Source: a virus
Taxonomy: Duplodnaviria; Caudoviricetes
DNA length: 64,000 bases
Virus record (IMG/VR): IMGVR_UViG_3300047160_036126
Location: 1 to 64,000 of that record
Strand: one strand, 5' to 3'
Positions 9,886-36,883 of this stretch are shown piece by piece. Position 1 is the first letter of the stretch; each line of letters begins with the position of its first letter. The notes beneath the pieces were generated by a model. That model saw nothing but the letters and a program-made list of their open reading frames with translations, did not search any database and was not told where the DNA came from. Position numbers and translations under genes: made by a program.

Positions 9886-9949
9886 GGGATACCTTGGGGA
9901 TACCTACAACTGTCCGCAGCGCTATCTATCTTCCGATAAGCCATTGATT
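9886..9949 (-). promoter_or_regulatory. Putative integrase arm repeats and IHF site
   Basis: Direct repeat GGGATACC (9886-9893, 9897-9904); minus-strand AATCAATGGCTTA (9949-9937) fits WATCAANNNNTTR. Confidence 0.6.
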
Positions 9950-9952
9950 TGA

Positions 9953-10000
9953 TGGGTGGGTGCACAAGGACTCGAACCTTGGACCCGCTGATTAAGAGTC
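9953..10000 (-). other. att-like core: 3' half of tRNA-Lys(CTT)
   Basis: Minus strand GACTCTTAATCAGCGGGTCCAAGGTTCGAGTCCTTGTGCACCCACC; no D-arm or 5' acceptor strand upstream. Confidence 0.85.
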
Positions 10001-10692
10001 CGTACACTCATCTTAAGGCGGATTCGGGAAAGCGACCTTGATTTCGCTTACGTCTGACGAAAGGCGGGCACTTCCATACATACTGTTATCCTAATGCGGC
10101 CACACTGGGGGTCGAGGACTCAAAAAACCATTTACAGTGGGATCCACCGGATCCAACCCATCAAGCTGCAGAATGAAGTCTCTTCGTCTTCCGTAAACGA
10201 AGGATCGCAAACCCTATGGAGTTTGACCGGTTCTTCAACCGTCAGCGCGCGGTCTCTCCTTAGCCGACCGGCTGCGTTTTCCATGACGATGCCACTCTGA
10301 CCGGAGCCGCGGGATTGAAGAGTGTCGAACACGGCGCGTGCGAAGGCGGACCTCCGGCCCTCCCCCACATCGCGCCTCGGGTGATTGTCTGCTTCAGCGT
10401 CGGCCGTTATGGCCGGTCTCGGTCCCGAATCATTCGACCACTCGTTAGTGGAGGTGGAACTGAGTAGCGTTGATCGGAGTTGCGCAATCATTTTGAGGCA
10501 ATTCACCACGTCAGCCGTGTTCCGCGCATGAGGCGCTCGTTCCAAGAGCAACTCGTTCGCTTCGGAGACGTCAAATCGCCGCTCGAGCCGTTCGCGGAAA
10601 TGGCCCCTTAAAGGGGCCGATCCCGTCGCGCGAGAAGCCGATGGGCGCGGTGCCGACCCCGGTGCTTCCCTATTGCTTCCTCTGAAAGCAAC

Positions 10693-19876: not shown

Positions 19877-20661
19877 TGAGCCTTCGTCTTTCCAGCTTCT
19901 GATTTGAGTTTGTTTTCTTTATCTCTTTCCTTTTCCTTTGCTGCCAGCGCAACAGTGGCTTGCTTGTAGTTCTTGGCGGGAATATCGATTGCCTTTTCCA
20001 CCTTCATATATTTCAGGAAATTTTGATGAACCTCTTCGCCTAAGGCCCGCGCTCGTTTATCGAGTTCGGCGGCCTGCTCTATGGTGATATTCCCGGTTTC
20101 GTGATTACCGTCCTTGTCGTCGCCCGTGCTGATATTCAGTAAGGCGCAGATTGCGACGCGCTTCGCATAGGTGACGGACGATGAGGTCGCATGCGGAAGG
20201 GTCTTGTTGACCGTGCCGGCGATACCCGTCTTATCGAGCGGCATCGTGATCGTGGTTTCTTCTACATGGCCGCCTCGGTGCCAGAGTTCGGCCTTGACCG
20301 TGACGCTGGTGTCGGTCTGTGCGATAATCTTCGTGGCGGTGCCGAAGCCGTATTTTTCTAAAACCGGGTCGATCTCGACGTTAATGTCTTCCAGCGGGGC
20401 ATATTTGGATTTGGTCTGAGTGTTTTCCTTGCGCCGCAATACCTTCGGCAAATGCGGCTTCATGAGAACGTAATCTGCGGCAAAAGCCTGTTTCGCATTC
20501 CGGTTTAGAATGTGTTCTTGAAGCGACATAAGCTTTTCGAGCTTCGTAACATCGAAATTCGGATCGGTCGCCGCGCGTTCGATCATGTTCATGACTGCCG
20601 CACGTTCGTCCTGTGCGGCGGGCAATTGCTGTTGTTCTTCGATCTTCTGTACGGCGTTCAT
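19873..20661 (-). CDS. ERF-family ssDNA annealing recombinase
   Basis: KSKYAPLEDI, SSVTYAKRVAICALLNI. Confidence 0.88.
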   Translation of the reverse strand: MNAVQKIEEQQQLPAAQDERAAVMNMIERAATDPNFDVTKLEKLMSLQEHILNRNAKQAFAADYVLMKPHLPKVLRRKENTQTKSKYAPLEDINVEIDPVLEKYGFGTATKIIAQTDTSVTVKAELWHRGGHVEETTITMPLDKTGIAGTVNKTLPHATSSSVTYAKRVAICALLNISTGDDKDGNHETGNITIEQAAELDKRARALGEEVHQNFLKYMKVEKAIDIPAKNYKQATVALAAKEKERDKENKLKSEAGKTKAQ

Positions 20662-22363: not shown

Positions 22364-22600
22364 ATGCCCCGTGGCCTCAGCTATTCCGCTCGGCGCCGTC
22401 TGTACAAGGAACTATTCGCGCGCGACGGCAATCTGTGCTGGATCTGTGGTGAACCGATAAGCCGGAACAATCGAGGCAAAACCATGAGTCGCACTTTGGA
22501 TCGCGTCATCCCCGGAAAACAGGGTGGAACCTATCGGCCGGACAATCTTCGACTCGCGCATAAGCTCTGCAATGAACTGCGGGGAGCATCGCCCGCATGA
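22364..22600 (+). CDS. Small HNH-family protein (first His replaced by Arg)
   Basis: CWICG...TLDRVIP...GG...NLRLAHKLCN. Confidence 0.8.
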   Translation: MPRGLSYSARRRLYKELFARDGNLCWICGEPISRNNRGKTMSRTLDRVIPGKQGGTYRPDNLRLAHKLCNELRGASPA

Positions 22601-22806
22601 CACAGGACGGATTTCTCAAATCTCTCAGCGATAACAAGACCGCCGTAACCATTTATATTGTCAACGGTGTCAAATTGATGGGCGTGATCGCGTGGCACGA
22701 TCAATACACGATCGGCCTCTGCCGCGACGGCCGCACGCAGATGGTCTATAAACATGCAATCGCAACCGTGATGCCGAATGAACCGCCGCAAGTATCAGGA
22801 CGCTGA
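22597..22806 (+). CDS. hfq: Phage-encoded Hfq (Sm-like RNA chaperone)
   Basis: QDGFL, VTIYIVNGVKLMG, QMVYKHAIATVMP. Confidence 0.95.
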   Translation: MTQDGFLKSLSDNKTAVTIYIVNGVKLMGVIAWHDQYTIGLCRDGRTQMVYKHAIATVMPNEPPQVSGR

Positions 22807-23017
22807 AGCCGATTTGCTTCTTTGGCGCATGCTTGGCTGTAATCTCCATGGCGAGCTGATAGAATGTTATGCTAGTATTACGGGATGGGATAACTCGGTA
22901 GCGACCAATGCTGCTCACCGATCTGCTTTTGCTTCTTGCGATATTCATGGCAATTCGAGCGTGCCCGAAGAAAGGCCCCAAGCCGAAGAAAGAACGCCGC
23001 TGGCTTCGACGCAATAA
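22778..23017 (+). CDS. Hypothetical protein
   Basis: Overlaps hfq 3' end; no motif. Confidence 0.35.
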   Translation: MNRRKYQDAEADLLLWRMLGCNLHGELIECYASITGWDNSVATNAAHRSAFASCDIHGNSSVPEERPQAEERTPLASTQ

Positions 23018-23420
23018 GGCGCCACGCAAACGCGGTAGGTTTCACGCAGGACGCCCATCGCGATTTCCTCCCGATTGGGCTTGGGCGCGCCAGCAGCAAT
23101 ATAATCGGATCATGCAAACTACCTCGGCGGAAGCCGCTGTATGCGCCGTCCTTCGGAATCTTGGCATACAATACGAACGGGAACATATCGTAATGCGCCC
23201 AAATGGGCGGCCACTTTTTGTAGATGTGTGGGTGCCGTCGCTTCGGATTGGTATGGAACTGGACGGCTCTCACCATCGAGACTGTCTAGACGTATATGAT
23301 ATTCCGCGTGATCAATGGATAGAAAAAGAAACAGGATTTAAAATTCTGCGCCAATGGAATAAATGGGCTACCGATCCAGGATTGGAATATAGATTGAAAT
23401 CCGTACTTAAATTGCTATAA
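22908..23420 (+). CDS. DUF559/Vsr-like endonuclease (true start probably downstream)
   Basis: TSAEAAV...FVDVWVPSLRIGMELDGSHH...RDQW...GFKILR. Confidence 0.8.
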   Translation: MLLTDLLLLLAIFMAIRACPKKGPKPKKERRWLRRNKAPRKRGRFHAGRPSRFPPDWAWARQQQYNRIMQTTSAEAAVCAVLRNLGIQYEREHIVMRPNGRPLFVDVWVPSLRIGMELDGSHHRDCLDVYDIPRDQWIEKETGFKILRQWNKWATDPGLEYRLKSVLKLL

Positions 23421-23434
23421 ATGCGAAACGCCGG

Positions 23435-24130
23435 ATGCTTGAACATCGCGGCGTTTCTAAACCAATAACAGGGATGGCTGCCATGGTTTCGTGCAGTGTA
23501 ATATCACTACCAGATAATTTACAAAATAAGATTATGCCAGAACCAACGTCGGGTTGCTGGTTATGGATCGGGGCTAGAGATCCGAGAGGGTATGGCCGCA
23601 GGACGGCGCAGGATCATGGTGAGAGATTAGCACATAGAGCGGTGTACAAAATACTACGAGGGCCAATACCGCGCGGTCTATTTTTATGTCATACGTGTGA
23701 CAATCCTCCTTGTGTAAATCCTTCGCATATGTTTGTCGGAACACAACTCGACAATATGAGGGACTGCTTTTCGAAAGGCCGAGGACAAGACTTGCGCGGA
23801 GAAGAAAAGTATTGTGCGGTGTTAACAGAGAAAGATGTGATTGAGATCCGCCTTTCTAAGGAAATAACTCGTGATCTGGCAAAAAGGTATGGGGTAAATA
23901 AAGCGTCGATCACAAGTTGTCGGCTCGGAAATACATGGAAGCATCTTAACGAAAAGTATCCACCATTAAAATTTTTTGATATTCTGACGAATGAACAGAG
24001 ATTTACGGCCTTTCACGATAAACGTCCTATTATGGAAATTGCGCGCGACTATGGAGTAGCCTACCAGAGTATTTGGCAGCTTAAGCGCAGGGGGCTTAAG
24101 CCTCGTGGTCGCCCGCCTAAACATCGATAG
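23435..24130 (+). CDS. HNH homing endonuclease with C-terminal HTH repeats
   Basis: PEPTSGCWLWIG, GYG, LCHTCDNPPCVNPSHMFVGTQLDN, LTEKDVIEIR. Confidence 0.9.
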   Translation: MLEHRGVSKPITGMAAMVSCSVISLPDNLQNKIMPEPTSGCWLWIGARDPRGYGRRTAQDHGERLAHRAVYKILRGPIPRGLFLCHTCDNPPCVNPSHMFVGTQLDNMRDCFSKGRGQDLRGEEKYCAVLTEKDVIEIRLSKEITRDLAKRYGVNKASITSCRLGNTWKHLNEKYPPLKFFDILTNEQRFTAFHDKRPIMEIARDYGVAYQSIWQLKRRGLKPRGRPPKHR

Positions 24131-24243
24131 AGAACATCAGTAATGCTGAACCGCCTGTCGCCGCACCGGAAAGCCCCGACGTTCCCTTCGCCCAATCCTG
24201 AGCCTTCCTTGCGCCGCGCACAGGGGCTATAGGATGCGTCCTT

Positions 24244-24519
24244 ATGGCCTTCGAAGACGATGCACTGCGGCTCTTAAAACTGAATTCGGAGATTACCGAG
24301 CTGACCGTCAGGCTGTGGCTGCGGCTTGGGCGTATGACTGAAGAGGAGTGGGAAGCCGAGCGCCAGCGGCGATTGAGACGAATGAGGGTTGTTGAGCGAA
24401 TGGAAAACGGAATAGTACTAAAAGGCGATGCCCCGATAATGGCCGATATGATCGATGAGGCTTTGCAGGCCAGGGAAAAATACAAACGAATGCTTGAAGG
24501 AGACCGCGATGCGCCGTGA
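24244..24519 (+). CDS. Hypothetical protein
   Basis: Helical charged ORF in operon. Confidence 0.5.
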   Translation: MAFEDDALRLLKLNSEITELTVRLWLRLGRMTEEEWEAERQRRLRRMRVVERMENGIVLKGDAPIMADMIDEALQAREKYKRMLEGDRDAP

Positions 24520-24997
24520 TCCGGCCAGGGCCGTGAAGCTGCTCGACCTCATGTTGGAATTCTTTGGCGAGGACGGTCACAGGTGGGCGCGCGGCTGGCA
24601 TGATCCAAGGACAGGGGCCAGGTGCCTTGTGGGAGCAATGAACCATCTTCGGAGCCGCCACAGGATTTGTCGGGATGGTGCTGGTCGGTATCTTGACGAT
24701 GCGTTGCCCGCCCGGTGGCGCGGCTTAATAAAGTTCAATGATGAACACGAGGGCGGCTGGTTTGAAGTGCTGATGGTTCTGGCAAAAGCGCGGCAACTCG
24801 CTTTATGCGAGCTTAGCGGCACACCGAAGCCAGTAAAGGCGCACCAGCCACGCCGTGAGGCGTCATTGAGGGCCCGAATAGACCTCTTGAGCCAAATCTA
24901 TGAAGACCGCTGCTCGCCAAGGGTGCGCTGGATAACCAAGGATACCTATATCCTTTGCCCCAATGAGCCGGTCGAGGCGCTCCCAATGGCGGCCTAG
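24509..24997 (+). CDS. DUF6197-like hypothetical protein
   Basis: HRWARG...RCLVGAM...LIKFND. Confidence 0.55.
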   Translation: MRRDPARAVKLLDLMLEFFGEDGHRWARGWHDPRTGARCLVGAMNHLRSRHRICRDGAGRYLDDALPARWRGLIKFNDEHEGGWFEVLMVLAKARQLALCELSGTPKPVKAHQPRREASLRARIDLLSQIYEDRCSPRVRWITKDTYILCPNEPVEALPMAA

Positions 24998-25294
24998 CCG
25001 GGCTTTAACTGCTCTGCCAGCGCCCAAATGGCCTCGGCTATCGTCGGAGCCTGCGCACGTGCTAGCGGTTCATCCACGGCCTTCTGACGCAGATCGGTGG
25101 CCTCTGCAACGGTGATGCTGCCTGTGCGGCCCTGCAAGGCCTTCTGATAGCGTTCGTCGATGATCCTGGCGTAGGGCGCGGGATAGGCACGGGCGATGAT
25201 CTCGCGCCCGGTTGCTATAAGTTCGATACGGGCAAGCTGGTGGCGGTCGATCAAGGCGCTTGAGCTGGGTTTCGGGGGTGGCTGGCTTTGGCAT
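24994..25294 (-). pseudogene. Hypothetical protein with a 1-nt frameshift near 25255
   Basis: MPKPATPETQLKR| continues as LIDRHQLARIELIATG in the other frame. Confidence 0.45.
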
Positions 25295-25297
25295 GGA

Positions 25298-25501
25298 TCA
25301 CCACGGGATGGGCCGTCCATCATCACCCCTACGCCACGGAATAACCCTGCCGTCCTTATCGAGCCTACGGGTGCCGTATTGTTCGAGGGGCAAGGATAGG
25401 TTTGAGTGGATTTCGCACAGCTTGTTTTCCGCTCGCATGGCGACTTCCCAGCCGCAGATGATACACTCGCGCTGGATATCTTGGTTTGCTGGGTTTGGCA
25501 T
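25298..25501 (-). CDS. Small Cys-containing protein
   Basis: CIICG...LCEIH. Confidence 0.5.
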   Translation of the reverse strand: MPNPANQDIQRECIICGWEVAMRAENKLCEIHSNLSLPLEQYGTRRLDKDGRVIPWRRGDDGRPIPW

Positions 25502-25617
25502 TCAGGCATCATACTAAAAAGCCGCGGATATGCACAACCCTGCCAGCGCGTTTTCTTTCATCAAGCGCAGTATCTGTTTTGCTCATCTTGGCTTCCCCTC
25601 ATCGTCCACCAAATATG

Positions 25618-25854
25618 TCATTTAATCTGCTTAATTTCCTTCAGGATAGCCGCGAAGCCTTCGGCAGCCAGCCTTAGATCCATGGCCGAGCCGTAGGTGA
25701 TGCAAAGCTTGTCGGGTTCGGCCCACGGCCCCTTGAGGCTTCCTTCGGAATTACTGCGCAACTCGCGCGTGCCGAGGGCCCGCTCCAAAACGTCGAACCT
25801 GGTGCTCAATTCGTTTTTCAGTCGCGCCGCGTGGTCTTTTCGGATGACGGGCAT
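25618..25854 (-). CDS. Hypothetical protein
   Basis: RBS GGAGG; fits the operon. Confidence 0.55.
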   Translation of the reverse strand: MPVIRKDHAARLKNELSTRFDVLERALGTRELRSNSEGSLKGPWAEPDKLCITYGSAMDLRLAAEGFAAILKEIKQIK

Positions 25855-26222
25855 AGAGCCTCCCTAAATTTTCTTGCGGCATAGCGCACATTGTGAGCGT
25901 AACGGCGCGCGCGGATGAGGTTGAAGGCGGTCCTTGGCCGTTTCTGGCGCCGGCGAAGCTCGCGCACCGTCATCGGCCTTTCGGGAATTGCCGCATGCCG
26001 CACGCGCGCGTTTGCCGCGTCGACGTCTTCTGGCATCTGGGCAGGGGCAATGCGCAATCCGGCAAGCTCGTGGCCGCGGACGATGGCCTCGTCGAGGTCT
26101 TCAAGGATGTCGATGCTCTTACCTGCGCGCACCTCATATTCTCCCGGCCGCATACTGAGGTGCACGCCCTTAAGGGCGAGGTCGCGTTGTGCGGCGGTGA
26201 AGCGCTCGGCGGCCGAGGTCAT
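25818..26222 (-). CDS. Hypothetical protein
   Basis: ATG overlaps upstream stop. Confidence 0.5.
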   Translation of the reverse strand: MTSAAERFTAAQRDLALKGVHLSMRPGEYEVRAGKSIDILEDLDEAIVRGHELAGLRIAPAQMPEDVDAANARVRHAAIPERPMTVRELRRRQKRPRTAFNLIRARRYAHNVRYAARKFREALCPSSEKTTRRD

Positions 26223-26593
26223 CCGGCAACCCCCGGCACGGCGAACAAGGCATTTCGACATGCCGTCCCGATAGATCGCAGGACGGCCGGGGACGCTTTG
26301 CTGGCGGACAAGTAGCCTGATGCGTCGGACGTGGTGGAAGTCCCTTCTGCAGTATCGTCGGCGTGCAGGACGCCAGCGATGATCGTAGTGCTGCCGTTGT
26401 CGGATTTGGGATCGGGTATCCGGGTGGCACTGAAAACTATATCGACGTTGCCATTGCGGTCGGGCCTCTCGTCACATTGCAAGCGCGCCGGAAGGCCATG
26501 CGCTCCCAGCTCTCCATGTTCTTCTTGGGCCAGCGCCTGAAAGCTGATTAAAGCCGCGGCAAATACGATTGCGACCTGAGAAAGTTTATCCAC
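26219..26593 (-). CDS. Secreted hypothetical protein
   Basis: Signal peptide ...FAAALISFQALA. Confidence 0.6.
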   Translation of the reverse strand: MDKLSQVAIVFAAALISFQALAQEEHGELGAHGLPARLQCDERPDRNGNVDIVFSATRIPDPKSDNGSTTIIAGVLHADDTAEGTSTTSDASGYLSASKASPAVLRSIGTACRNALFAVPGVAG

Positions 26594-26634
26594 TTATAGC
26601 TCCATTCTGCTATAGGGCGGGTTTAGTCATGCTG

Positions 26635-26925
26635 TCACCCTGCCGGACTTGCACCGGCTCGGCTCGCTACAGCGAACCGTCTTTCGACTTTGCGGTCTAG
26701 TCTCGTGATGACATGAGGGTGATTTCGCGGTGTCTGTTTGACTAATCTTCCACCTCTTCGCTCTCTGGCAGAGTTAATCAAATCTCTACATCTTTGACAC
26801 GATTTGTAATCGCCTGCCCAGCCCGAACATCGTGAGCATCTGTTACCACCCATTTCTTTAGGCGCTTCCGTTTTCTTTTCAGGTGCAGGTAAGCTTTTTA
26901 AGTTTTGTCGATAGATGTGTGGCAT
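26635..26925 (-). CDS. Zinc-finger-like hypothetical protein
   Basis: CSRC...CQRC. Confidence 0.5.
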   Translation of the reverse strand: MPHIYRQNLKSLPAPEKKTEAPKEMGGNRCSRCSGWAGDYKSCQRCRDLINSARERRGGRLVKQTPRNHPHVITRLDRKVERRFAVASRAGASPAG

Positions 26926-26931
26926 TATCAG

Positions 26932-27153
26932 TTATTCTGCAAATTCCAAACAGTCGTAATGAAGCCGATCGTCCTGCTTCCTTCCAGGCCAGCGGACACG
27001 CACTATCTCGGATTTGCTCTGCGGTTGTCGATTGACTACTCCTATTTCCTCGCCCCAGAGCGATAACAATGGTCGTTGTTTGCGTCCTTGTGGCGACAGC
27101 CGAACCTTATCTCTGATCCTGAACGGGTTTTCGGTTTCTTGTTTGTCGGTCAC
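26932..27153 (-). CDS. Small SH3/KOW-like protein
   Basis: FRIRDKVRL...GVV...VRVRWPG; GTG overlaps upstream stop. Confidence 0.5.
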   Translation of the reverse strand: MTDKQETENPFRIRDKVRLSPQGRKQRPLLSLWGEEIGVVNRQPQSKSEIVRVRWPGRKQDDRLHYDCLEFAE

Positions 27154-27524
27154 GCCGCCTCCATCAATTCGCGCGCGCGGACTTTGCTCGACTCCGGCAT
27201 CTCCCAGCATTCGCCCCAATGGGTTTTGATCTCGATGCCGAACGGCTTGAGTTTTTTGCGCATCTTGCAAATCCATACGTCGAGGATCTTCTCACCCGGC
27301 GGCTCGTCGGCCTCGGTGCTGTACATTGCCGCAATGAAGGCTTCGACTCTTGGCGCCCGATTGTTAAGCAAAACGTTGAACATTTCTGCTTCGCTGCGAG
27401 TGAGGTTGAAATAGGGCGGCGGCATATCCGCTCCCTTAAGAGCCTTCTTAAGCAGGCGGATCTCTTCACGCAGCGTCTCGTTCTCGACGTCAAGAACTTC
27501 TGCCCTCGCCTTCCAGTCGATCAT
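27150..27524 (-). CDS. OmpR-type winged-helix DNA-binding protein, CtrA-like, no receiver domain
   Basis: LTRSEAEM...DEPPGEKILDVWICKMRKKL...IKTHWG; N-terminal coiled coil. Confidence 0.85.
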   Translation of the reverse strand: MIDWKARAEVLDVENETLREEIRLLKKALKGADMPPPYFNLTRSEAEMFNVLLNNRAPRVEAFIAAMYSTEADEPPGEKILDVWICKMRKKLKPFGIEIKTHWGECWEMPESSKVRARELMEAA

Positions 27525-28348
27525 GCGGCCATCCTGTTACCGGCACGGACCCAGCCTTGGGCGACGGCTTTCCACAATTGCATGCGGTGATCGACATCGG
27601 AATGGGCGGCGACTTGACGCCGCCATTGGTCGATCGATTTGCTGCGCACGACCGTGACGAGATCGGCGGCGGAATGCGCCCAGCCGAATTTGGCGTCGAA
27701 CAAGACGGCCGCACTGGCAAGGATTTCATGCACGACGACCGGCGCCCGCTTGGCAGATACCAGCACCTTTAAGGCCTTGGTCGCCTTTTCCTCACCCAGG
27801 CGCCCAACCAGGCGCACGATAGCGCCGGCGGCCATGGTATCTCCAACTTCCCATTCTGGCGCCTGAACCTTCGCAATGGTTACGCCGGCCGCCTGGGCAA
27901 CCTTCCGGGTGAGAAGGGCCGCCTCATCGCCGGCGACGATTTTGGCATGGAAGATTTGAAGGGCGTTCATCGTGAGACGGTGGGTATTCTGCTCGATGAA
28001 GGCCCGCGCGCGCTGCTTCAATTCGGCAGCTTTCACCACCATCACCGGGATTTTGTCGATGTCGCCGCGGCTCGCGGCTGCAATAGCGGTGTGCTGTCCG
28101 TCTATCACGCATAGCTTGCCATCCGTACCCTCTGCACAGATCGGCGGCTTGATATGTAGCCAGTCAAAATTTTTGGCAATCTCGCGAATAAGCTTGATCG
28201 ATCGCTTCGTGAGATCCCGCTGATATTCGCCTTCGATGAAAAGCTCTTTTGGGTCGATCCATTTGAAGGAAGGCTGTTCGGGGGAGACTGTTTCGAGCTT
28301 CAGGCTGGGAAGGGGGATCGGCTTAACGAGACGAAGCTTTGCTGACAT
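27521..28348 (-). CDS. ParB/Srx N-terminal domain protein (DUF6551-like)
   Basis: EYQRDL, VIDGQHT, RARAFIEQN. Confidence 0.8.
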   Translation of the reverse strand: MSAKLRLVKPIPLPSLKLETVSPEQPSFKWIDPKELFIEGEYQRDLTKRSIKLIREIAKNFDWLHIKPPICAEGTDGKLCVIDGQHTAIAAASRGDIDKIPVMVVKAAELKQRARAFIEQNTHRLTMNALQIFHAKIVAGDEAALLTRKVAQAAGVTIAKVQAPEWEVGDTMAAGAIVRLVGRLGEEKATKALKVLVSAKRAPVVVHEILASAAVLFDAKFGWAHSAADLVTVVRSKSIDQWRRQVAAHSDVDHRMQLWKAVAQGWVRAGNRMAA

Positions 28349-28368
28349 GCGCCCTCCCGGTTGTTGAT

Positions 28369-28590
28369 TTAGAGGGCTGTTCGGTCATGCCTGCACCGTT
28401 TGGGTTGTTTGTCGTCGGGTTGGAAAATCAACACGGAACCGTCAGACCGTTCCAGTCTAGCCTCCACGATAAGGCGGCCCGCCTGCTCGACGCAGGCATC
28501 GCAAATATAACAGGACGGTCCGGCGATAAAAAGAAACCGCTCGCTGGCGTAGGCGCCGCAGAATGAACAACTGAGATTCTTGTTGCTCAT
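28369..28590 (-). CDS. Stand-alone ClpX C4 zinc-binding domain
   Basis: LSCSFCG...IAGPSCYICDACV. Confidence 0.9.
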   Translation of the reverse strand: MSNKNLSCSFCGAYASERFLFIAGPSCYICDACVEQAGRLIVEARLERSDGSVLIFQPDDKQPKRCRHDRTAL

Positions 28591-29045
28591 GCTGCCGGCC
28601 TCTGGTCAGAAAGTTGCGGGAGCATCTTAGAATTTATAGCGCGGTCGAGGACAGTCTCGCCGGTTGGCAAAAGCATTTGACCAAGGAACGCGCCCTCGAA
28701 ACTTAGGATGCCACTCTCGATTGCCATCACCTGGCCCTTGATCCAATCGCGCAGGATCGAGTAAACGGCCTTTCCGCCAATGTCCAAGGCACGCTGCTCC
28801 CATTCGGCGCGGGAAGCGCGACGGCGATGACTATAAGGATTTTCTTTCAACCAAGCGGCTGCGTAACCCTTTGCAGAAGCGCGGACGCAGATCGGAATAT
28901 TGCGGAAGGTGAATTGGACGATAAGTTCGCCCTTCTCGAAATCCTGCATATGACCAAAATTCTGGACGCCAAAGCGCTGCAAAATCCTTTGCACCTCGTC
29001 CATTGCTTTCGCGCCGGTAGTGGCATCCTGATACGGCAGGCTCAT
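28587..29045 (-). CDS. Conserved phage hypothetical protein
   Basis: ILRDWIKGQVMAIESGILSFEGAFLGQMLLPTGET. Confidence 0.75.
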   Translation of the reverse strand: MSLPYQDATTGAKAMDEVQRILQRFGVQNFGHMQDFEKGELIVQFTFRNIPICVRASAKGYAAAWLKENPYSHRRRASRAEWEQRALDIGGKAVYSILRDWIKGQVMAIESGILSFEGAFLGQMLLPTGETVLDRAINSKMLPQLSDQRPAA

Positions 29046-29179
29046 GCGCGCCTCTCTGCTGTGCGCTGTGGCTTGGTTCGCGAATTGTATGAGATCGGAA
29101 GATCAAGAATCTTTCGCTCTACAATCACGGACATGCTTAAGCCTGTCTCCTTGCGGATATGCTTAAGCCTAGGCAGAAC

Positions 29180-29478
29180 TTTCTCTGATAAAAAGAATGT
29201 GTGATTTTTCTTCATTGAGAGATTGTATGAATAATAATTATTCAGTTGTCAATAAGCGGGTTCCTTGTTTGACGCGCCGCAGGCAAGTCAATAAAGGAGA
29301 CGTTCCTCGTCTCGACGAGATTACGTGACCACGCAAAGCGGCGTGGTCAAACCCTGCAACCGCGGAGCGGCGCGCAGCCATGGGCGAGCGGGGTTGACCG
29401 CAATAGCCGTGCCGCGTGGTATTGAGCAATAATGTTTCGTTCCGTTGCCGATATAAATAAGCGATTATTATTTAAGCG
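29180..29478. promoter_or_regulatory. Divergent control region with operator-like palindromes
   Basis: TGAATAA-TAA-TTATTCA (29228-29244), TTGAC-N13-GTCAA, TTGACA on minus strand; AT-rich. Confidence 0.55.
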
Positions 29479-30048
29479 TTGGACATGCTATATTTGGTCG
29501 CAGACAGGGCCGATTCTCGGTTTTGTCTATTCACCGCAAGGTGGGCGGGTTTGGGTGTTGCAACGCCTCGATCCTGCTCCTCGAAAGGGGATCGGCCCGC
29601 TACCTTCGCATCTTTCGAGGTCTCTCCTTTGGCTTTGTATTCAAAACGATTGCAAAAAAAATGGCCCCATTTGAGGTTCTGGGAAGAGATGTACGCGCTT
29701 GGGTGGCGAACGGAAGTTGGTTATGGACCAGCTATATATCAAGAGGACATACCGTCGGCCGCGGGGGTTTATCTTTTTGGATTAATCGACATATCTTTCG
29801 GTAAACGGCTTAAGCCGGTTCGGGTGGCATACGTAGGAAAGTCGCGTAACTTGGCGCGCCGCCATATTGACCATCCAATGCTCAGGTTTATTAGGCGAGA
29901 TGTCGGCCTGTGGTGGTCCATAGACCTGTGGTTTAAGAGACTGGATGAGGGAGAAATTACTTCGGAAGAGATTCGGCTGATCCAGGCATTCAATCCGCCT
30001 TATAACATACAACACAGACTGCGCGGATTTCATGGACAGGCTATTTAG
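29479..30048 (+). CDS. GIY-YIG domain protein (start uncertain)
   Basis: GVYLF...YVGKSRNLARRH...EIRLIQAFNPPYN. Confidence 0.8.
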   Translation: MDMLYLVADRADSRFCLFTARWAGLGVATPRSCSSKGDRPATFASFEVSPLALYSKRLQKKWPHLRFWEEMYALGWRTEVGYGPAIYQEDIPSAAGVYLFGLIDISFGKRLKPVRVAYVGKSRNLARRHIDHPMLRFIRRDVGLWWSIDLWFKRLDEGEITSEEIRLIQAFNPPYNIQHRLRGFHGQAI

Positions 30049-30700
30049 GATTGATTTCTATCCGCAGGATTGGCTCGTCAAAACTGGGGGTCTCACGCCC
30101 GAACAGTGTGGTGTTTACATTCAGGTCGTTTCGCTGATTTATGCTTCGCGTGGTCCTGTTGAATTTGATCCCGCTCGTATATCGAGACTCGTCCAGGGCT
30201 GTACGGTGCGAAGGGCAAAACGAGTGTTAGATGAGTTAATTGCTTTAAAAAAGTTACATGTGTTTGAGGGATTTTTGAGCAATAATCGGTGCGAAATTGA
30301 GTTGAAAGTAAAGAAAAACCAATTGGAATCTAACCGAAAAGGTGGGGAAAATTCGGCAAAAAAGAGGTGGGGTGCTAATGAAAACAGAGGCATAGTTGTA
30401 AGTCACTTAGAAAGTGACTTAATAACCCCGTCCCCGTCCCCGTCCCCGTCCCCGTCCCCGAAAGAATACTTCTTTGAAGGTAAAATAATAAAGTTGACGG
30501 AAAAGGATTTTAATCAATGGCGATCGTCTTACCCGAACATTCGAGATTTGCGGGCTACGCTGCAGCGGCTTGACGATGGTGCCGCGCGGAAATGGGGAAA
30601 GGGTTGGTGGCATCCGTGTTCTTCGACTTTGGCCAAAATTAACGCGGAAGAGAAAACAACAGCACGGGCGCCGCTGCACCCAGGGGCGATTACGATATGA
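30032..30700 (+). CDS. Replication initiator, YdaU/DUF1376 family
   Basis: IDFYPQDWL..T..LTPEQCGVY; Pro-Ser linker. Confidence 0.85.
   Translation: MDRLFRIDFYPQDWLVKTGGLTPEQCGVYIQVVSLIYASRGPVEFDPARISRLVQGCTVRRAKRVLDELIALKKLHVFEGFLSNNRCEIELKVKKNQLESNRKGGENSAKKRWGANENRGIVVSHLESDLITPSPSPSPSPSPKEYFFEGKIIKLTEKDFNQWRSSYPNIRDLRATLQRLDDGAARKWGKGWWHPCSSTLAKINAEEKTTARAPLHPGAITI
30426..30460 (+). repeat. (CCCCGT)n hexamer tandem repeat encoding a Pro-Ser linker
   Basis: About 6 copies, in frame. Confidence 0.8.
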
Positions 30701-31995
30701 AGGAAACGGATTCTTTGCCGGTTAATCACGATGTAGAGGTCGGCCTAATAGCCTGCGCAATGCTGGGGCCGAAGCTTTGGCACGAAATGGCATTCGTGGC
30801 ACCAGATGATTTCGTCGATCCGTTCAATGGAAAACTTTGGGCGTTGATACGGGCGGCATATGAGCGGGGGGAAAGCCCCCAGGTGCAGGCGATAGGGGAT
30901 GCGGCCGGCGGCACGACGGATGAACGTAAGCAGATTACGGATTGGCTTGTGAGTTGGATGTCTAGGACGATCACGGTTTTGTCGGGTGTCGATTATGCGA
31001 AGATGGTTCATGATTATGCGGAGCGCCGAAAAATTATCGACTTGGCGAACAGGATTCAATTTGAGGCGGCCGATGTGTCGGGCGCGCGGATTGCGGCGGA
31101 TATCGCCGCCAAGGCCGTCAGCGAATTGACGAACATCGTTTGCCGTAAGCGCGAGACGTTGAGTGCATTTGAGGTGGGTATGCAGGTGGTAAATAATCTC
31201 GCAAAACCGATGGACTTTTGTTCTACGAAATTCCCGCGGCTTGACGGTGCGCTTGGCGGCGGATTATTTCAAAACAAATTTTACGGCATCGGCGCCCGGA
31301 TGAAATCCGGCAAAAGTCTCCTCATGTCGACGCTTGCTTACAACATGACGGTTATGGGGACCAGCCGGGTTTTATATCTGTGCCTGGAAATGGGATATGA
31401 GGAAACGTTTCAGCGCCTTCTGGCGCGAAAGATGGGTTTTAATGCATCGGAATTTCTCGATCCGATTAAGCGGCTCGACAAGGGGTTCCGAGAGAACGCT
31501 CGCACAGCGGCCGCGACATTCAAGGATTGCGGGTTATTTTTCAAAGCGAGGCCACGGATCGATATTGACGATTTGAAATCGATCATCGCGCAGGAAGGTC
31601 TGCGGGGTCATGTGGACGGGATAATCATCGATTATTTGCAACTCGTTACTGGAAAAACAAAGTCGCAAACACTGGCTGACCATTACGATCATGTGGCGCA
31701 GACAATGGCCGAAGCCGTGAAGCGGTATCCGATTTGGATTCTGACTGCGGCGCAGCTTAATCAAGAGGGCAATATCCGCGGTGGTGAAGGCTTATTGAAC
31801 GCGTGCGATATGACTTTCGCCCTGCACAAAAAGGAATTTGCACCGGATTGGCAGGGGACGAGGGTTTGTGATGAAGCGTGGCTCGAAATGATGGCGAGCC
31901 GGTACACACAATACCGAAATATCGGTTCCGAGCAAAGTGCCGGTTACAGGATTGAAACACAGATTGGGCCGATGTTCTGCGAGCAACAGCTATGA
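30697..31995 (+). CDS. dnaB: DnaB-like replicative helicase
   Basis: Walker A GARMKSGKS, CLEMG, IIIDYLQL, AAQLN. Confidence 0.93.
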   Translation: MKETDSLPVNHDVEVGLIACAMLGPKLWHEMAFVAPDDFVDPFNGKLWALIRAAYERGESPQVQAIGDAAGGTTDERKQITDWLVSWMSRTITVLSGVDYAKMVHDYAERRKIIDLANRIQFEAADVSGARIAADIAAKAVSELTNIVCRKRETLSAFEVGMQVVNNLAKPMDFCSTKFPRLDGALGGGLFQNKFYGIGARMKSGKSLLMSTLAYNMTVMGTSRVLYLCLEMGYEETFQRLLARKMGFNASEFLDPIKRLDKGFRENARTAAATFKDCGLFFKARPRIDIDDLKSIIAQEGLRGHVDGIIIDYLQLVTGKTKSQTLADHYDHVAQTMAEAVKRYPIWILTAAQLNQEGNIRGGEGLLNACDMTFALHKKEFAPDWQGTRVCDEAWLEMMASRYTQYRNIGSEQSAGYRIETQIGPMFCEQQL

Positions 31996-32181
31996 AAATC
32001 CCGATCCGTGGGTGGCGGCGGAAGCGCGGGACAGGTTCGAGATGTTGCTGGTGGTCTGAGGGAATTTCGGTTGAATATGCGTGATCGGTTCGCATGCGGA
32101 ACGATTGGAGATCACCCTATAAAGCCTTTGACATTAAAGATTTTTCGACTTAATCAATAATTGTTCGAGTCGCATTGAACA

Positions 32182-32212
32182 GCGGCCCGGTTCGCGATAG
32201 CAGCCGGGCCGC
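32182..32212 (+). terminator. GC-rich hairpin after the replication module
   Basis: GCGGCCCGG...CCGGGCCGC; lacks a U-tract. Confidence 0.35.
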
Positions 32213-32230
32213 ATTCCATTGAGGCCGCTC

Positions 32231-32662
32231 GTGCCGAAAAAGAAAAAACCTCAGCCGCAAAAATCAGAAACGGGATTGGAAGTCAGCATTTGCTTGGCAC
32301 TGGCGGTAATTTTTATTGCCGCGTTGCTTGTGCGGGGATGGATGGAAATCAACACGGTTGCTCAGCTTCGCGATGACAACAAGGTTCTGACCGCTGCGAA
32401 CCATCAATTGTGGGACGAAGTGGATAAGCTGAAAGCGGAGAAGGTTGAAACGTTGCCGGCCGCGGGTCCACAGCATATTTTTCTGCATGATGACCCGCCG
32501 AAAGAGCGTTCGGCTGATAGCCTAAATCTGGCTGAAGCCGTGCGCCACGGCGACCACAGGCGCGACAACATCGAAACGGATAAAGCCGCGGTTCACGCGG
32601 AGGAGGCACGCACGCCGGACGACGCCGGAGAGGAAGGCCAATGCCCGGTGTGCTCGAAATAA
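32231..32662 (+). CDS. Membrane-anchored coiled-coil protein
   Basis: Basic N-terminus, one TM, heptads. Confidence 0.6.
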   Translation: MPKKKKPQPQKSETGLEVSICLALAVIFIAALLVRGWMEINTVAQLRDDNKVLTAANHQLWDEVDKLKAEKVETLPAAGPQHIFLHDDPPKERSADSLNLAEAVRHGDHRRDNIETDKAAVHAEEARTPDDAGEEGQCPVCSK

Positions 32663-32841
32663 CCCGTTTCACTCCGCGCCGGAAGGCCGAGCTGGTTCAT
32701 GCAATCGCGACCGGCGCGGTTAGCGATTACGAGGTGATGCAGCGGTATTCGATGTCTCCGCAGGAACTGCTCGATCTCAAGCGTCTCGCACCGCAAGGGC
32801 GAAAGGCGCTGCGCGTGACGAAGCGAACGGTTTCCGCATGA
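32641..32841 (+). CDS. sciP: SciP-like (DUF1153) CtrA-inhibitor homologue
   Basis: RFTPRRKAELVHAIATGAVS...RYSMSPQEL...ALRVT. Confidence 0.8.
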   Translation: MPGVLEITRFTPRRKAELVHAIATGAVSDYEVMQRYSMSPQELLDLKRLAPQGRKALRVTKRTVSA

Positions 32842-33287
32842 TGAATTTAACCCCAGAGCAACTGCAAGAAATGTACGTCGGCCAAAACAAGTCGATGAAC
32901 GAGATCGCGCGGATAAGCGGCATGCCCAAGGGCACAATCGTGAGTCGGTTGCGCAGGTTGCGGCTGAGGGGGTTGATCGGGTTCAAAGCTCGCGGGCCGG
33001 CGAAAGTATTACACAGGCCGCGAAAACCTGTTGCCGATAAGCCGAAACCAGTGCCCGTAGTGGTACAGCCCAAAATTGAGATGCCCATTCCAGTGGCGCC
33101 GGTGAGCCTCCTGAAGGTCAACGACAGGCTTTGCCGGTATCCGCTGGATTATAAGATCGACGGGTTTTCGGCATGCTGTGGCGGGGAGGTGGTGGCGGGG
33201 ACGCCCTATTGCGCGGATCATGCTGGTATTTGCTTTATTGTGAAGCCGCGGGTGCCGCCGCGAGGTCATCGGGCGATCGGGGAGTGA
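32838..33287 (+). CDS. gcrA: GcrA cell-cycle regulator homologue
   Basis: N-terminal HTH (SMNEIARISG..KGTIVSRLRRL); C-terminal VSLL..CRYP..CCG...GTPYCADH. Confidence 0.85.
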   Translation: MMNLTPEQLQEMYVGQNKSMNEIARISGMPKGTIVSRLRRLRLRGLIGFKARGPAKVLHRPRKPVADKPKPVPVVVQPKIEMPIPVAPVSLLKVNDRLCRYPLDYKIDGFSACCGGEVVAGTPYCADHAGICFIVKPRVPPRGHRAIGE

Positions 33288-33514: not shown

Positions 33515-34159
33515 ATGCGCGCGGCTACACCTTTGGTAAAACAAACGGAATTACCGGCTTTTCTGGTCGAGCGGCGTGCGGTCGCGCGCAAAAAGGAGCG
33601 CAAGATTTCGGCGCCGCGTCCTATCGGCGACGTCGGCACCGCGGAAATGAAACGACAGCAAAAGGTGACGCTGGAAGTGCGTGAACGGTCATCGACCGGG
33701 CATGCGACGATGATGGGCGCGCGTGTGGAATCGCAGTTTCCGATTGATCGGTATAAGGCGCGCAAAGAGCTCGATCCGGCGAATGCCTGGAGGAATTTGA
33801 TGCTGTGGCAGGCGGCTGAGCGGCTGCGCGAGGATTTCCAGGCTTCAGGCCTAGCGCCGAAATTGTGCGGAAGTTTCGAGCCGCGGGTGACGGGCGGACG
33901 TCAGACGTTCGAGGCGGATCATCAGGTCGACGCTCTCAGGCGCTACAAGAAAGCGATGGATGCTGTGGCGGTGACGCTGCGGTCTGTGGTGTTCTATGTG
34001 TGCATCGCTGGTGAGGCTGCGAACGAGTGGGCGCGGCGGAACGGAGAAATACCGCAAGCGGGCCTGCCGATATTGCGCTTGGGCCTCGCGGAGCTTGCGC
34101 ACCACTACGGTTATGCGAAAATTCCAGTGACAGACAAGACGTCGCTCGCTGGAGAATAA
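33515..34159 (+). CDS. DUF6456 domain protein, putative late-gene activator/antiterminator
   Basis: AAERLREDF...VCIAGE...LRLGLAELAHHYG; occupies the Q-like position. Confidence 0.7.
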   Translation: MRAATPLVKQTELPAFLVERRAVARKKERKISAPRPIGDVGTAEMKRQQKVTLEVRERSSTGHATMMGARVESQFPIDRYKARKELDPANAWRNLMLWQAAERLREDFQASGLAPKLCGSFEPRVTGGRQTFEADHQVDALRRYKKAMDAVAVTLRSVVFYVCIAGEAANEWARRNGEIPQAGLPILRLGLAELAHHYGYAKIPVTDKTSLAGE

Positions 34160-35190: not shown

Positions 35191-35496
35191 ATGCCATTTG
35201 AAAAAGGAAAATCAGGTAATCCGGGTGGCCGCAATAAGGAACATGAGCGGCTGAAAAAGCTCGCGCTGAGCTATTGTCCGGCTGCGATCAAGAGATTGGG
35301 CGAGTTGATCGCATCGAAGGATGCGCGCACAGCCGTTGCAGCGTCGAGCGCGATTTTGGATCGCGGTCTTGGCAAACCAGCGCAGGCGTTGGAGCACAGC
35401 GGTATGATCGCGACGACGCACGAAGAATATTTAAAACAGCTTGATGCAGGGAATGACGCCGACGGAGAAGGAGATCCGGCTTCGGTTGCGGGATGA
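35191..35496 (+). CDS. Terminase small subunit (DUF5681-like)
   Basis: PFEKGKSGNPGGR...ILDRGLGKPAQ. Confidence 0.82.
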   Translation: MPFEKGKSGNPGGRNKEHERLKKLALSYCPAAIKRLGELIASKDARTAVAASSAILDRGLGKPAQALEHSGMIATTHEEYLKQLDAGNDADGEGDPASVAG

Positions 35497-36883
35497 TTTC
35501 GAATATTACGCCCCGAGATGCCTGAAAATACGGACGAAGAGCGGTGCAATCGAACCGCTTAGGTTAAACGGCGCCCAGAATTTCTTTCACGATAAACTTG
35601 AAGACCAGAAGCACCGGACCGGGAAGGTTCGCGCCCTGGCGCTGAAAGGGCGACAACAGGGCGTATCGACTTACACCGAAGGGCGGTTTTTCCATCGGGT
35701 TACAAACCGGCGGGGGACACGGGCATTCATCCTCACGCACATGGATGACGCCACCAATAACATCTTCGGGATGGCGAAGCGGTTTTACGACTATTGCCCG
35801 GCGGTAGTAAGGCCGATGCTGGCGGCTTCAAACGCCAAGGAGCTGGTCTTTAATCGCCTGGACAGCGGCTACAAGGTCGGGACTGCGGGCAGCAAGGGAA
35901 CAGGCCGCGGCGAGACGCTGCAACTGTTCCACGGGTCTGAGGTGGCCTACTGGCCCAATGCTGATACGCATGTCGCCGGTGCGCTGCAGGCGGTACCGGA
36001 CGAGCCCGGCACTGAGATCATATTAGAAAGCACGTCGGCGGGGCGCCAAGGCCTGTTTTACGAGATGTGCGTGGCCGCAATGCGGGGAGAGGGTGAGTAC
36101 ATCCTCGTCTTCATGCCGTGGTTCTGGCAGCGAGAATATCGGAAACCGGTCGGAGTGAATTTCGAGCTCACGCGTGACGAAGCGGCGTATCAAGAGGCTT
36201 ACAAGCTCGATCTCGATCAAATCGCCTGGCGCAGGGCGAAGATCACGGAATTGAATGGCGTCCACAATTTCAGGCGGGAATATCCCGCGACGCCGGAAGA
36301 GGCCTTTGAGGCGGAAGTGCCGGGGGCGCTGTGGAAACGGGAGCAAATCGACAAGTTGCGGGTAGCGAAAGCGCCCGACCTTAAGCGTGTCGTCGTAGCG
36401 CTGGATCCTTCAGGGGGGGATAAATCGCGCAATGATGAAGTGGGGTTGGTCGGCGCCGGAGCTGATGGACAGAAGCACGGGTATGTGCTGGCCGATGAAT
36501 CAGGCCGCTACAGCCCGGATGCATGGGGCCGAAAGGCGGTTGCGCTTTATCACCTGCTGAAGGCCGATCGGATCGTCGCCGAAGCGAATTTCGGCGGCCA
36601 GATGGTCGAGCACGTCATTCGTACGATCGACCCGAACGTTCCGGTGAAGCTGGTGCACGCCTCGCGCGGCAAGCAGGCGCGCGCGGAGCCGGTAGCTGCG
36701 CTTTACGAGCAGGACCGCATGCACCATGCGGGCATGTTCATCGGGCTCGAAGACGAAATGGTCACCTGGGTCCCCCTGACGTCGACAGACAGTCCGAACC
36801 GGGTCGATGCGCTAGTCTGGGCTGCAACGGAGCTTTTAATAGACGGGCCGGGCACTGCGAACGTGGCGCCGCTGAGGCTGTAA
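35441..36883 (+). CDS. Terminase large subunit
   Basis: LKGRQQGVST, FHGSEVAYW, VALDPS, VAEANFGG, NRVDAL. Confidence 0.95.
   Translation: MMQGMTPTEKEIRLRLRDDFEYYAPRCLKIRTKSGAIEPLRLNGAQNFFHDKLEDQKHRTGKVRALALKGRQQGVSTYTEGRFFHRVTNRRGTRAFILTHMDDATNNIFGMAKRFYDYCPAVVRPMLAASNAKELVFNRLDSGYKVGTAGSKGTGRGETLQLFHGSEVAYWPNADTHVAGALQAVPDEPGTEIILESTSAGRQGLFYEMCVAAMRGEGEYILVFMPWFWQREYRKPVGVNFELTRDEAAYQEAYKLDLDQIAWRRAKITELNGVHNFRREYPATPEEAFEAEVPGALWKREQIDKLRVAKAPDLKRVVVALDPSGGDKSRNDEVGLVGAGADGQKHGYVLADESGRYSPDAWGRKAVALYHLLKADRIVAEANFGGQMVEHVIRTIDPNVPVKLVHASRGKQARAEPVAALYEQDRMHHAGMFIGLEDEMVTWVPLTSTDSPNRVDALVWAATELLIDGPGTANVAPLRL

Follow-up and report, generated by a model that had tools for sequence, protein, structure and literature searches.

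Are the look-alikes of host cell-cycle regulators that some phages encode directed at the host, or do they serve the phage itself? The question is raised by the window analysed here, the first 64 kb of the 77.6-kb IMG/VR provirus record IMGVR_UViG_3300047160_036126, which contains the early genes of a temperate phage of an alphaproteobacterium, with the integrase at the left prophage end. An initial annotation had proposed that ~11 kb of it encode a shadow cell-cycle circuit, in which minimal versions of CtrA, ClpX, ParB, SciP, GcrA and Hfq, together with a methyltransferase, are divided between two divergent operons, functions favouring CtrA running leftward and those opposing it rightward. 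On the evidence of domain identities, phylogeny, gene order and co-occurrence we favour another explanation, to which we give a probability of about 55%: the set is a mosaic of separately acquired, phage-private transcription regulators that run the phage's own programme. Within it, the genes for a ParB-like protein and for a small protein with a CtrA-derived winged helix–turn–helix (wHTH) domain are the sole fixed unit, one that is widespread in alphaproteobacterial phages and prophages. The remaining genes, for GafA-like, GcrA-like and SciP-like proteins, a ClpX zinc domain, Hfq and an MT-A70 methyltransferase, are accessory and vary between relatives.

A DNA-binding domain derived from CtrA

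The wHTH of the CtrA-type protein scores 21.7 bits against Pfam Trans_reg_C, below the cut-off of 26.2, and its best NCBIfam match is CtrA (NF045991) at 25.6 bits, which does not reach the 350-bit equivalog cut-off. A maximum-likelihood tree was calculated from 61 OmpR-type domains, the comparison set being all 33 OmpR-type DNA-binding domains of one Bosea and one Azorhizobium genome. Genuine CtrA and all of the phage proteins form one clade with support of 100/96, and the 29 other host domains fall outside it. The phage proteins are themselves monophyletic (99/92), the longer forms of cultured Rhodobacter and Roseobacter phages included. Among the Bosea and Azorhizobium domains the signature DEP…KI[IV]DVFICK…RKKL is confined to genuine CtrA, with which the prophage family shares it. 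The assignment to CtrA made in the initial annotation, which falls short at the Pfam cut-off, is thus upheld by the tree. The derivation of the wHTH of the phage family from the CtrA DNA-binding domain is phylogenetically solid and is the best-supported part of our analysis.

The protein belongs to a family of ~48 protein clusters in which a CtrA-type recognition helix stands behind a heptad-repeat N-terminus, and it has neither a receiver domain nor a phospho-acceptor aspartate. Its AlphaFold (AF2) model, with a mean confidence (pLDDT) of 83, consists of one long helix spanning residues 4–29 followed by the winged helix, and the top Foldseek matches of the model are OmpR/PhoB DNA-binding domains at a probability of 1.0. 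Leucines 11, 18 and 25 have heptad spacing along the long helix, and in its N-terminal part the protein gives a match to a bZIP leucine zipper. With a zipper in the place of the receiver, the modelled protein should dimerise without phosphorylation.

Such a dimer, expressed from the prophage, might retune the host flagella and pili that serve as phage receptors, and so lead to lysogenic conversion or to the exclusion of superinfecting phages. The control of motility and pili is an ancestral role of CtrA, and these structures are receptors for many phages of alphaproteobacteria (PMC9437464); the replacement of the receiver by the zipper would make phosphorylation unnecessary. The gene, however, stands in an early operon of lytic type together with recombination genes and not in a moron-like position, and we regard this explanation as very unlikely.

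A fixed partnership with a ParB-fold protein

We collected 160 loci around CtrA-like relatives from viral and genome collections, and counted the neighbours within ±10 kb of 102 distinct receiver-less CtrA-like proteins. DUF6551, the domain of the ParB-like protein, is present at 82 of the 102 loci, and in every pair (93/93) it is encoded on the same strand and directly upstream of the CtrA-like gene. In this phage the two genes overlap by 4 nt. The ParB-like protein matches DUF6551 and phrog_1033, which correspond to the ParB-CTPase fold, and is an orphan: no member of the ParA family was found among the open reading frames (ORFs) scanned between 14 and 37 kb. DUF6551 has been counted among the domains that partner the ParB-CTPase fold, and DUF6551 proteins of phages bind CTP or ATP in vitro (10.1101/2025.10.10.680097). 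The same work describes phage ParB-CTPase folds as often fused to DNA methylases and enriched in prophages, and suggests an anti-defence role for them.

That role is the starting point of a second alternative, in which the ParB-like, CtrA-like and MT-A70 proteins form a DNA-maintenance or anti-defence module, working either through a ParB-type clamp, for whose loading the wHTH partner would read the site, or by targeted protective methylation, and the other look-alikes are unrelated morons. An MT-A70 gene is found at 31 of the 102 loci, mostly 0.2–2.5 kb downstream of the pair, and conjugation and anti-restriction genes, that for ArdC included, adjoin the prophage. The lack of a ParA partner among the scanned ORFs speaks against the module, as does the distance of 10 kb between methylase and pair in this window; moreover, the wHTH falls in a clade of transcription factors and is encoded elsewhere beside GcrA-like sigma cofactors. 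We consider a maintenance or anti-defence module improbable as the explanation of the set.

The accompanying regulators

The calls of Hfq, ClpX zinc-binding, ParB-like, SciP-family and GcrA-like domains are confirmed by hidden Markov model (HMM) matches over the Pfam cut-offs or by their E-values. The ClpX zinc domain is of the C4 type (CxxC…CxxC) with all four cysteines kept, and is 48% identical over 42 aa to host ClpX N-termini. The AAA+ unfoldase module is absent, the match to TIGR00382 covering positions 3–48 of 418.

The SciP-like protein passes the cut-off of PF06627 (39.8 against 23.5 bits), and the SciP model NF051866 is its sole NCBIfam match, at 38.2 bits against an equivalog cut-off of 100. 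It is 35–39% identical over 54 aa to four host SciPs, and with 66 aa, compared with ~90 aa for full-length SciP, it is missing the N-terminal ~30 residues, about one third. A complex predicted between it and the CtrA-type DNA-binding domain scored 0.08, which allows no call either way. The gene for the SciP-like protein overlaps that for the GcrA-like protein by 4 nt. The latter likewise passes its Pfam cut-off (PF07750, 33.3 against 26.9 bits) and lies far under that of NCBIfam (NF050816, 20.5 against 280). The C-terminus of the GcrA-like protein aligns to the sigma70-binding domain of GcrA (5YIX_B, E = 0.008) and the invariant C..CG..YC..H columns are retained. Its N-terminal helix–turn–helix (HTH) is present and divergent, the …TRNAVIGK.HRL… motif being replaced by …PKGTIVSRLRRL…, and its identity to host GcrA is 20–29%. 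Indexed homology searches with P0003 and P0004 returned self-matches only, the GcrA-like protein being a singleton there, and a single-protein scan of viral contigs with P0004 gave no match.

The methyltransferase is of the MT-A70 class (PF05063) and not of the CcrM class, whose mark is an N6_N4_Mtase domain (PF01555) with GANTC specificity, and its gene lies 5 kb outside the ~11 kb in which the circuit had been placed. The GafA-like gene is the first after the GcrA-like gene and lies 1.3 kb upstream of the terminase gene; its product matches DUF6456 at 56.8 bits (cut-off 26.3) and is a candidate late-gene activator.

Hfq has an Sm-fold core that exceeds the curated cut-off of TIGR02383 (79.7 against 61.7 bits) and is 50–58% identical to host Hfq proteins. 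Its gene and an overlapping HNH gene form a plus-strand island of low GC content (~50%) within the leftward region. This HNH gene, one of three scattered through the early region, overlaps the start codon of Hfq. The scattered HNH genes suggest that cargo such as Hfq was inserted by homing endonucleases.

Recurrence of the gene set

Apart from DUF6551 and MT-A70, few members of the set recur around the 102 CtrA-like proteins: a GcrA-like gene is found at eight loci, a SciP-like gene at one, and the ClpX zinc domain and Hfq at none. A search with Pfam HMMs through 50 entire viral records that carry a CtrA-like gene found GcrA in 8 and the ClpX zinc domain, DUF1153 (the SciP family) and Hfq in none. 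The two closest relatives, G001 and G002, whose CtrA-like proteins are 73% and 64% identical to that of the window, keep the ParB-like/CtrA-like pair, DUF6456 and the terminase, and by the same HMMs have none of the ClpX zinc domain, DUF1153, Hfq and GcrA. Co-occurrence was the check that the initial annotation had itself named, and its single circuit is not borne out by these counts; what recurs are sub-modules of the seven-gene set.

The opposed polarity of the two operons fares no better as a general design. In the window itself the ClpX-type, ParB-like and CtrA-like genes do run leftward and the SciP-like and GcrA-like genes rightward with DnaB and terminase, Hfq being in neither operon. 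The CtrA-like and GafA-like genes of G001 share a strand, and in L086, a prophage in a metagenome-assembled genome, the SciP-like gene lies upstream of, and on the same strand as, the ParB-like and CtrA-like genes in that order. These layouts show that the opposed-operon design is not conserved. Besides that of the window, no prophage DUF1153 gene was found except the SciP-like gene of L086 (L086:7383-7679, +), which scores as a transposase-type HTH (HTH_Tnp_1) as well; some of the short phage matches to DUF1153 may therefore differ from SciP in function.

In viral contigs GcrA-like genes are frequent: two search patterns yielded 479 confirmed ones, and the association was tested in reverse on the best 80 of these 479 loci. 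A CtrA-like domain occurs in 11 of the 80 (one full-length with receiver, two weak) and MT-A70 in 15; the ClpX zinc domain and Hfq occur in none. At seven of the loci a receiver-less CtrA-like gene is the immediate same-strand neighbour of the GcrA-like gene; both orders occur, and MT-A70 is often the gene that follows. Four loci (L246, L247, L257 and L231) have a compact, same-strand arrangement of GcrA-like, CtrA-like and MT-A70 genes or of CtrA-like, GcrA-like and MT-A70 genes, and in L233 and L250–L252 MT-A70 directly follows the GcrA-like gene. Judged from this gene order, such clusters may be a phage-private module for reading methylation. A looser toolkit, of CtrA-type wHTH, GcrA-like, MT-A70 and ParB-like genes, thus recurs in varying combinations. 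The full-length CtrA with receiver belongs to L284 (IMGVR_UViG_3300023211_000126), where its gene (13247-14014, +) lies 3 kb from the GcrA-like gene (9911-10606); it is either host DNA inside the provirus call or the mark of a phage with a complete CtrA.

It is against these counts that a host-directed shadow circuit has to be judged. According to it, the leftward CtrA-type dimer and a ClpX decoy would keep the host G1-like and high in CtrA, the rightward SciP-like and GcrA-like proteins would drive it to an S-like state favourable to replication, and the choice between the two would replace a CI/Cro switch. All of the look-alikes are real, five of them within ~6 kb around one divergent switch, and the recognition helix is of CtrA type; the same idea has been put forward for gp222 of Caulobacter phage phiCbK, a GcrA homologue of the kind carried by phiCbK-type phages, with the proposal that it may shift the replicative state of the host (Gill et al. 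2012, PMC3556154). The set is, however, not conserved, three of its members being missing from the nearest relatives, and neither G001 nor L086 shows the opposed-strand logic. The loss of the N-terminal third from the SciP-like protein, the divergent HTH of the GcrA-like protein and the position of Hfq also fit the circuit poorly. The absence of CI, which the initial annotation had noted, holds among the ORFs scanned, where a non-exhaustive search found no CI/XRE-type gene, yet a small gene with a weak ribbon-helix-helix (RHH) match heads the leftward set at the switch and is an ordinary candidate for a repressor. A shadow circuit of this kind therefore seems unlikely to us.

DNA sites and candidate repressors

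A motif with a TTAA core, GCTTAAGCC, gives 6 strand-matches against 0.5 expected, a number reached in 0 of 100 shuffles, and three of its four sites bracket the divergent switch. It was not found in the closest relatives and so cannot be assigned to the CtrA-type protein; it is probably an operator of this phage's own. The RHH protein, with weak matches only, is a candidate for the switch repressor.

GANTC is depleted in the prophage (12701-60000), with 79 sites observed against ~178 expected from base composition (observed/expected 0.44). None of the other NNnNN palindromes, 16 in all with GANTC, is depleted more strongly, CTNAG and GGNCC coming close, and the depletion fits a host with GANTC methylation.

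Gene layout of the prophage

The leftward early genes run from the switch to the integrase, and the rightward genes from the DUF1376 and DnaB replication pair through the large terminase to the structural genes (Table 1). In the first rightward ORF (~29700-30048, +) a GIY-YIG-like motif (…YVGKSRNL..R…) can be seen by eye; a Pfam scan of the longer ORF 29479-30048 gave no match. No Rfam family was found in the 12–37 kb part of the window, and the record has neither a GapR nor a MucR gene.

The right flank of the prophage (record ~64.5-77.6 kb; L230:4500-17574) encodes a coupling protein of a type IV secretion system, a MobA/MobL relaxase and the anti-restriction protein ArdC, and also a ParB_N protein and two AP2-HNH genes. 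From the conjugation genes, a conjugative element or plasmid either adjoins the prophage or contains it.

Table 1 Features of the window, in order of position
Feature	Position	Strand	Basis
Tyrosine integrase, left prophage end	12763-13818	-	PF00589 E=2e-21
DUF3800 protein, near integrase end	14837-15607	-	
HNH-type endonuclease, early region	15652-16158	-	
MT-A70 adenine methyltransferase	16914-17474	-	PF05063 96.5 bits
YqaJ exonuclease, recombination pair	19238-19876	-	PF09588
ERF annealase, recombination pair	19873-20661	-	PF04404
HNH endonuclease	22364-22600	+	PF01844
Hfq	22597-22806	+	PF17209 E=1.9e-24; TIGR02383 79.7 bits
HNH-type endonuclease, early region	23435-24130	+	
GCTTAAGCC motif sites	24093-24102, 29135-29143, 29161-29169, 29807-29816		GGCTTAAGCC at two
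CtrA-type winged-helix protein without receiver, 124 aa	27150-27524	-	NCBIfam best match CtrA; tree
ParB-like DUF6551 protein	27521-28348	-	PF20188 41.9 bits; phrog_1033
Stand-alone ClpX zinc-binding domain, 73 aa	28369-28590	-	PF06689 45.4 bits, E=7.5e-12
152-aa protein, uncharacterised viral family	28587-29045	-	phrog_17260 E=7.5e-12; atlas clusters 83-93% viral, no Pfam family, no function indicated
Small ribbon-helix-helix (Arc/CopG-like) protein, first leftward gene	29042-29215	-	RHH_1 E=0.008; phrog_3180 E=1.9e-4 (weak)
Non-coding switch between divergent gene sets	~29216-29680	.	GCTTAAGCC repeats on both sides (29135, 29161, 29807)
DUF1376 protein, replication	30032-30700	+	PF07120
DnaB-type helicase	30697-31995	+	PF03796, PF00772
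147-aa protein overlapping SciP-like start	32219-32662	+	no Pfam/NCBIfam family; atlas scores <=0.83, no function indicated
Shortened SciP-family (DUF1153) HTH protein, 66 aa	32641-32841	+	PF06627 39.8 bits
GcrA-like protein, 149 aa	32838-33287	+	PF07750 33.3 bits
GafA-like (DUF6456) protein	33515-34159	+	PF20057 56.8 bits
Terminase large subunit, late genes begin	35441-36883	+	PF17289; tblastn matches to phage terminases

Discussion

In the mosaic that we favour, the fixed unit would be a ParB-CTPase-fold protein with DUF6551, translationally coupled to a small, constitutive zipper dimer derived from CtrA. Partnered by the ParB-fold NTPase, the dimer would need no phosphorylation to bind sites that contain TTAA. 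The GafA-like protein would turn on the late genes, and the GcrA-like protein would be a cofactor of sigma70, perhaps where the phage methylase has marked promoters. The zinc domain of ClpX, being free, could be a decoy against degradation by ClpXP that depends on the ClpX N-domain or on adaptors, whether of phage or of host regulators. Related phages and gene transfer agents rely on CtrA of the host, on GafA and on GcrA as a reader of methylation. This phage owns its versions, and we propose that such private, signal-independent versions make phage development independent of the cell-cycle state of the host.

The phage-centred reading of the CtrA-type binder, the GafA-like protein and the ClpX-derived domain has precedent in published work. 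Several phages of alphaproteobacteria have genes under the control of host CtrA, sites for host CtrA are present in phage genomes, and some phages carry CcrM analogues (PMC9437464). DUF6456 is the family of GafA, the direct activator of the gene transfer agent of Rhodobacter capsulatus (RcGTA), in which transcription of gafA needs CtrA and ClpXP tunes CtrA (PMC9638019).

Several observations weigh against the mosaic. A perfect TTAA-N7-TTAA box is absent from the whole window (0 against 0.41 expected), and in 87 related loci, where N7 is the only spacing enriched, there are 5 such sites against 1.0 expected, most loci having none; a target of the CtrA-type protein within the phage is therefore not visible. 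DUF6456 is found near 2 of the 102 CtrA-like proteins, so that a link from the CtrA-like to the GafA-like protein is lineage-specific at best. The association of GcrA-like with CtrA-like genes was judged by adjacency; of the two genes considered for a background rate in alphaproteobacterial phages, the DnaB of the window has no close viral relatives and the DUF1376 alignment is too divergent to serve as a search query. Finally, the ClpX zinc domain, the SciP-like protein and Hfq are each rare in phages. Searched by tblastn, 50,697 GenBank phage records gave the ClpX domain in no more than three fragments, all unannotated, while Hfq was found in a handful and the SciP-like protein in none. A SciP-family scan of viral contigs, which was pattern-based and possibly under-counts SciP-like genes, gave five matches, all of them full-length canonical SciPs at provirus edges and probably host flank. 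Three rarities beside a CtrA-like and a GcrA-like gene look less like random accretion, and they keep the host-directed reading alive.

A further reading would be a self-contained, phosphorylation-independent control layer made up of the constitutive CtrA-type dimer, an inhibitor of SciP type, a sigma cofactor of GcrA type with a private methylase, and a ClpX decoy for adaptors. Such a layer would set the timing of phage development and at the same time override the cell cycle of the host, and its accretion around the widespread ParB-like/CtrA-like core would be in progress. We think this distinctly unlikely as a whole. Host manipulation by these regulators is possible.

Phage copies of single regulators, GcrA and CcrM-like methylases, and the use of host CtrA by phages were known already; GcrA genes are published for phiLM21-like Sinorhizobium prophages (PMC12429752) as well as for phiCbK, as the initial annotation had rightly allowed. 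We have found no description in the literature of the CtrA-derived phage family, of its ParB-fold partner, of a phage SciP-family gene or of a free ClpX zinc domain. What the window adds is, first, a whole family of phage and prophage proteins derived from the DNA-binding domain of CtrA, with a zipper exchanged for the phospho-switch and locked to a ParB-fold NTPase; second, the recurrence of CtrA-like, GcrA-like and MT-A70 genes side by side in differing orders; and third, a phage that has in addition a GafA-like activator, Hfq, a gene of the SciP family and a ClpX zinc domain on its own. If the targets are truly in the host, these proteins would be natural and minimal tools, independent of signals, with which to dissect the CtrA/GcrA/ClpXP network. 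Should the targets be phage promoters, the phage would offer a view of gene-transfer-agent regulation, from CtrA to GafA, as it was before domestication.

Comparison with known systems

The phage CtrA-type protein has in common with host CtrA the recognition helix KI[ILV]DV[FW]ICK[MI]RKKL and the DEP motif ahead of it. It differs in having a leucine zipper where host CtrA has its receiver, in not retaining the equivalents of T168/T170, and in the coupling of its gene to a ParB-fold gene, which host ctrA does not show. Receiver-less proteins annotated as 'CzcR-like response regulator' or HTH proteins are encoded by Roseobacter phage RDJL3, Paracoccus phage vB_PmaS-R3 and Rhodobacter capsulatus phages of the RcSalem group. 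These have the same CtrA-derived DNA-binding domain (34–44% identity) and belong to the same phage sub-clade, but are 200–280 aa long with another N-terminal region, and lack both a DUF6551 partner and, within ±8 kb, a GcrA-like gene.

KorB–KorA of plasmid RK2 and DndB are ParB-fold NTPases that regulate transcription with or without a small DNA-binding partner. The pair described here resembles them in that a ParB-fold, NTP-binding protein stands beside a small dimeric DNA binder with no ParA partner; the likeness is one of fold only, with no sequence relationship, and the partner here is a CtrA-type wHTH. The GcrA proteins of phiCbK and of the phiLM21-like prophages are likewise phage-borne members of PF07750. 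Compared with them, the protein of the window is very divergent, is coupled to a SciP-family gene and stands alongside a CtrA-type gene.

A parallel in the combination of players is RcGTA. The phage differs from it in that the region upstream of the GafA-like gene shows no CtrA box and that DUF6456 is seldom found beside the CtrA-like family. The same three players are present: a DUF6456 gene that immediately precedes the packaging genes, a CtrA-type binder and a ClpX-derived domain. In RcGTA the CtrA and ClpX are those of the host, whereas here both are encoded by the phage in shortened versions.

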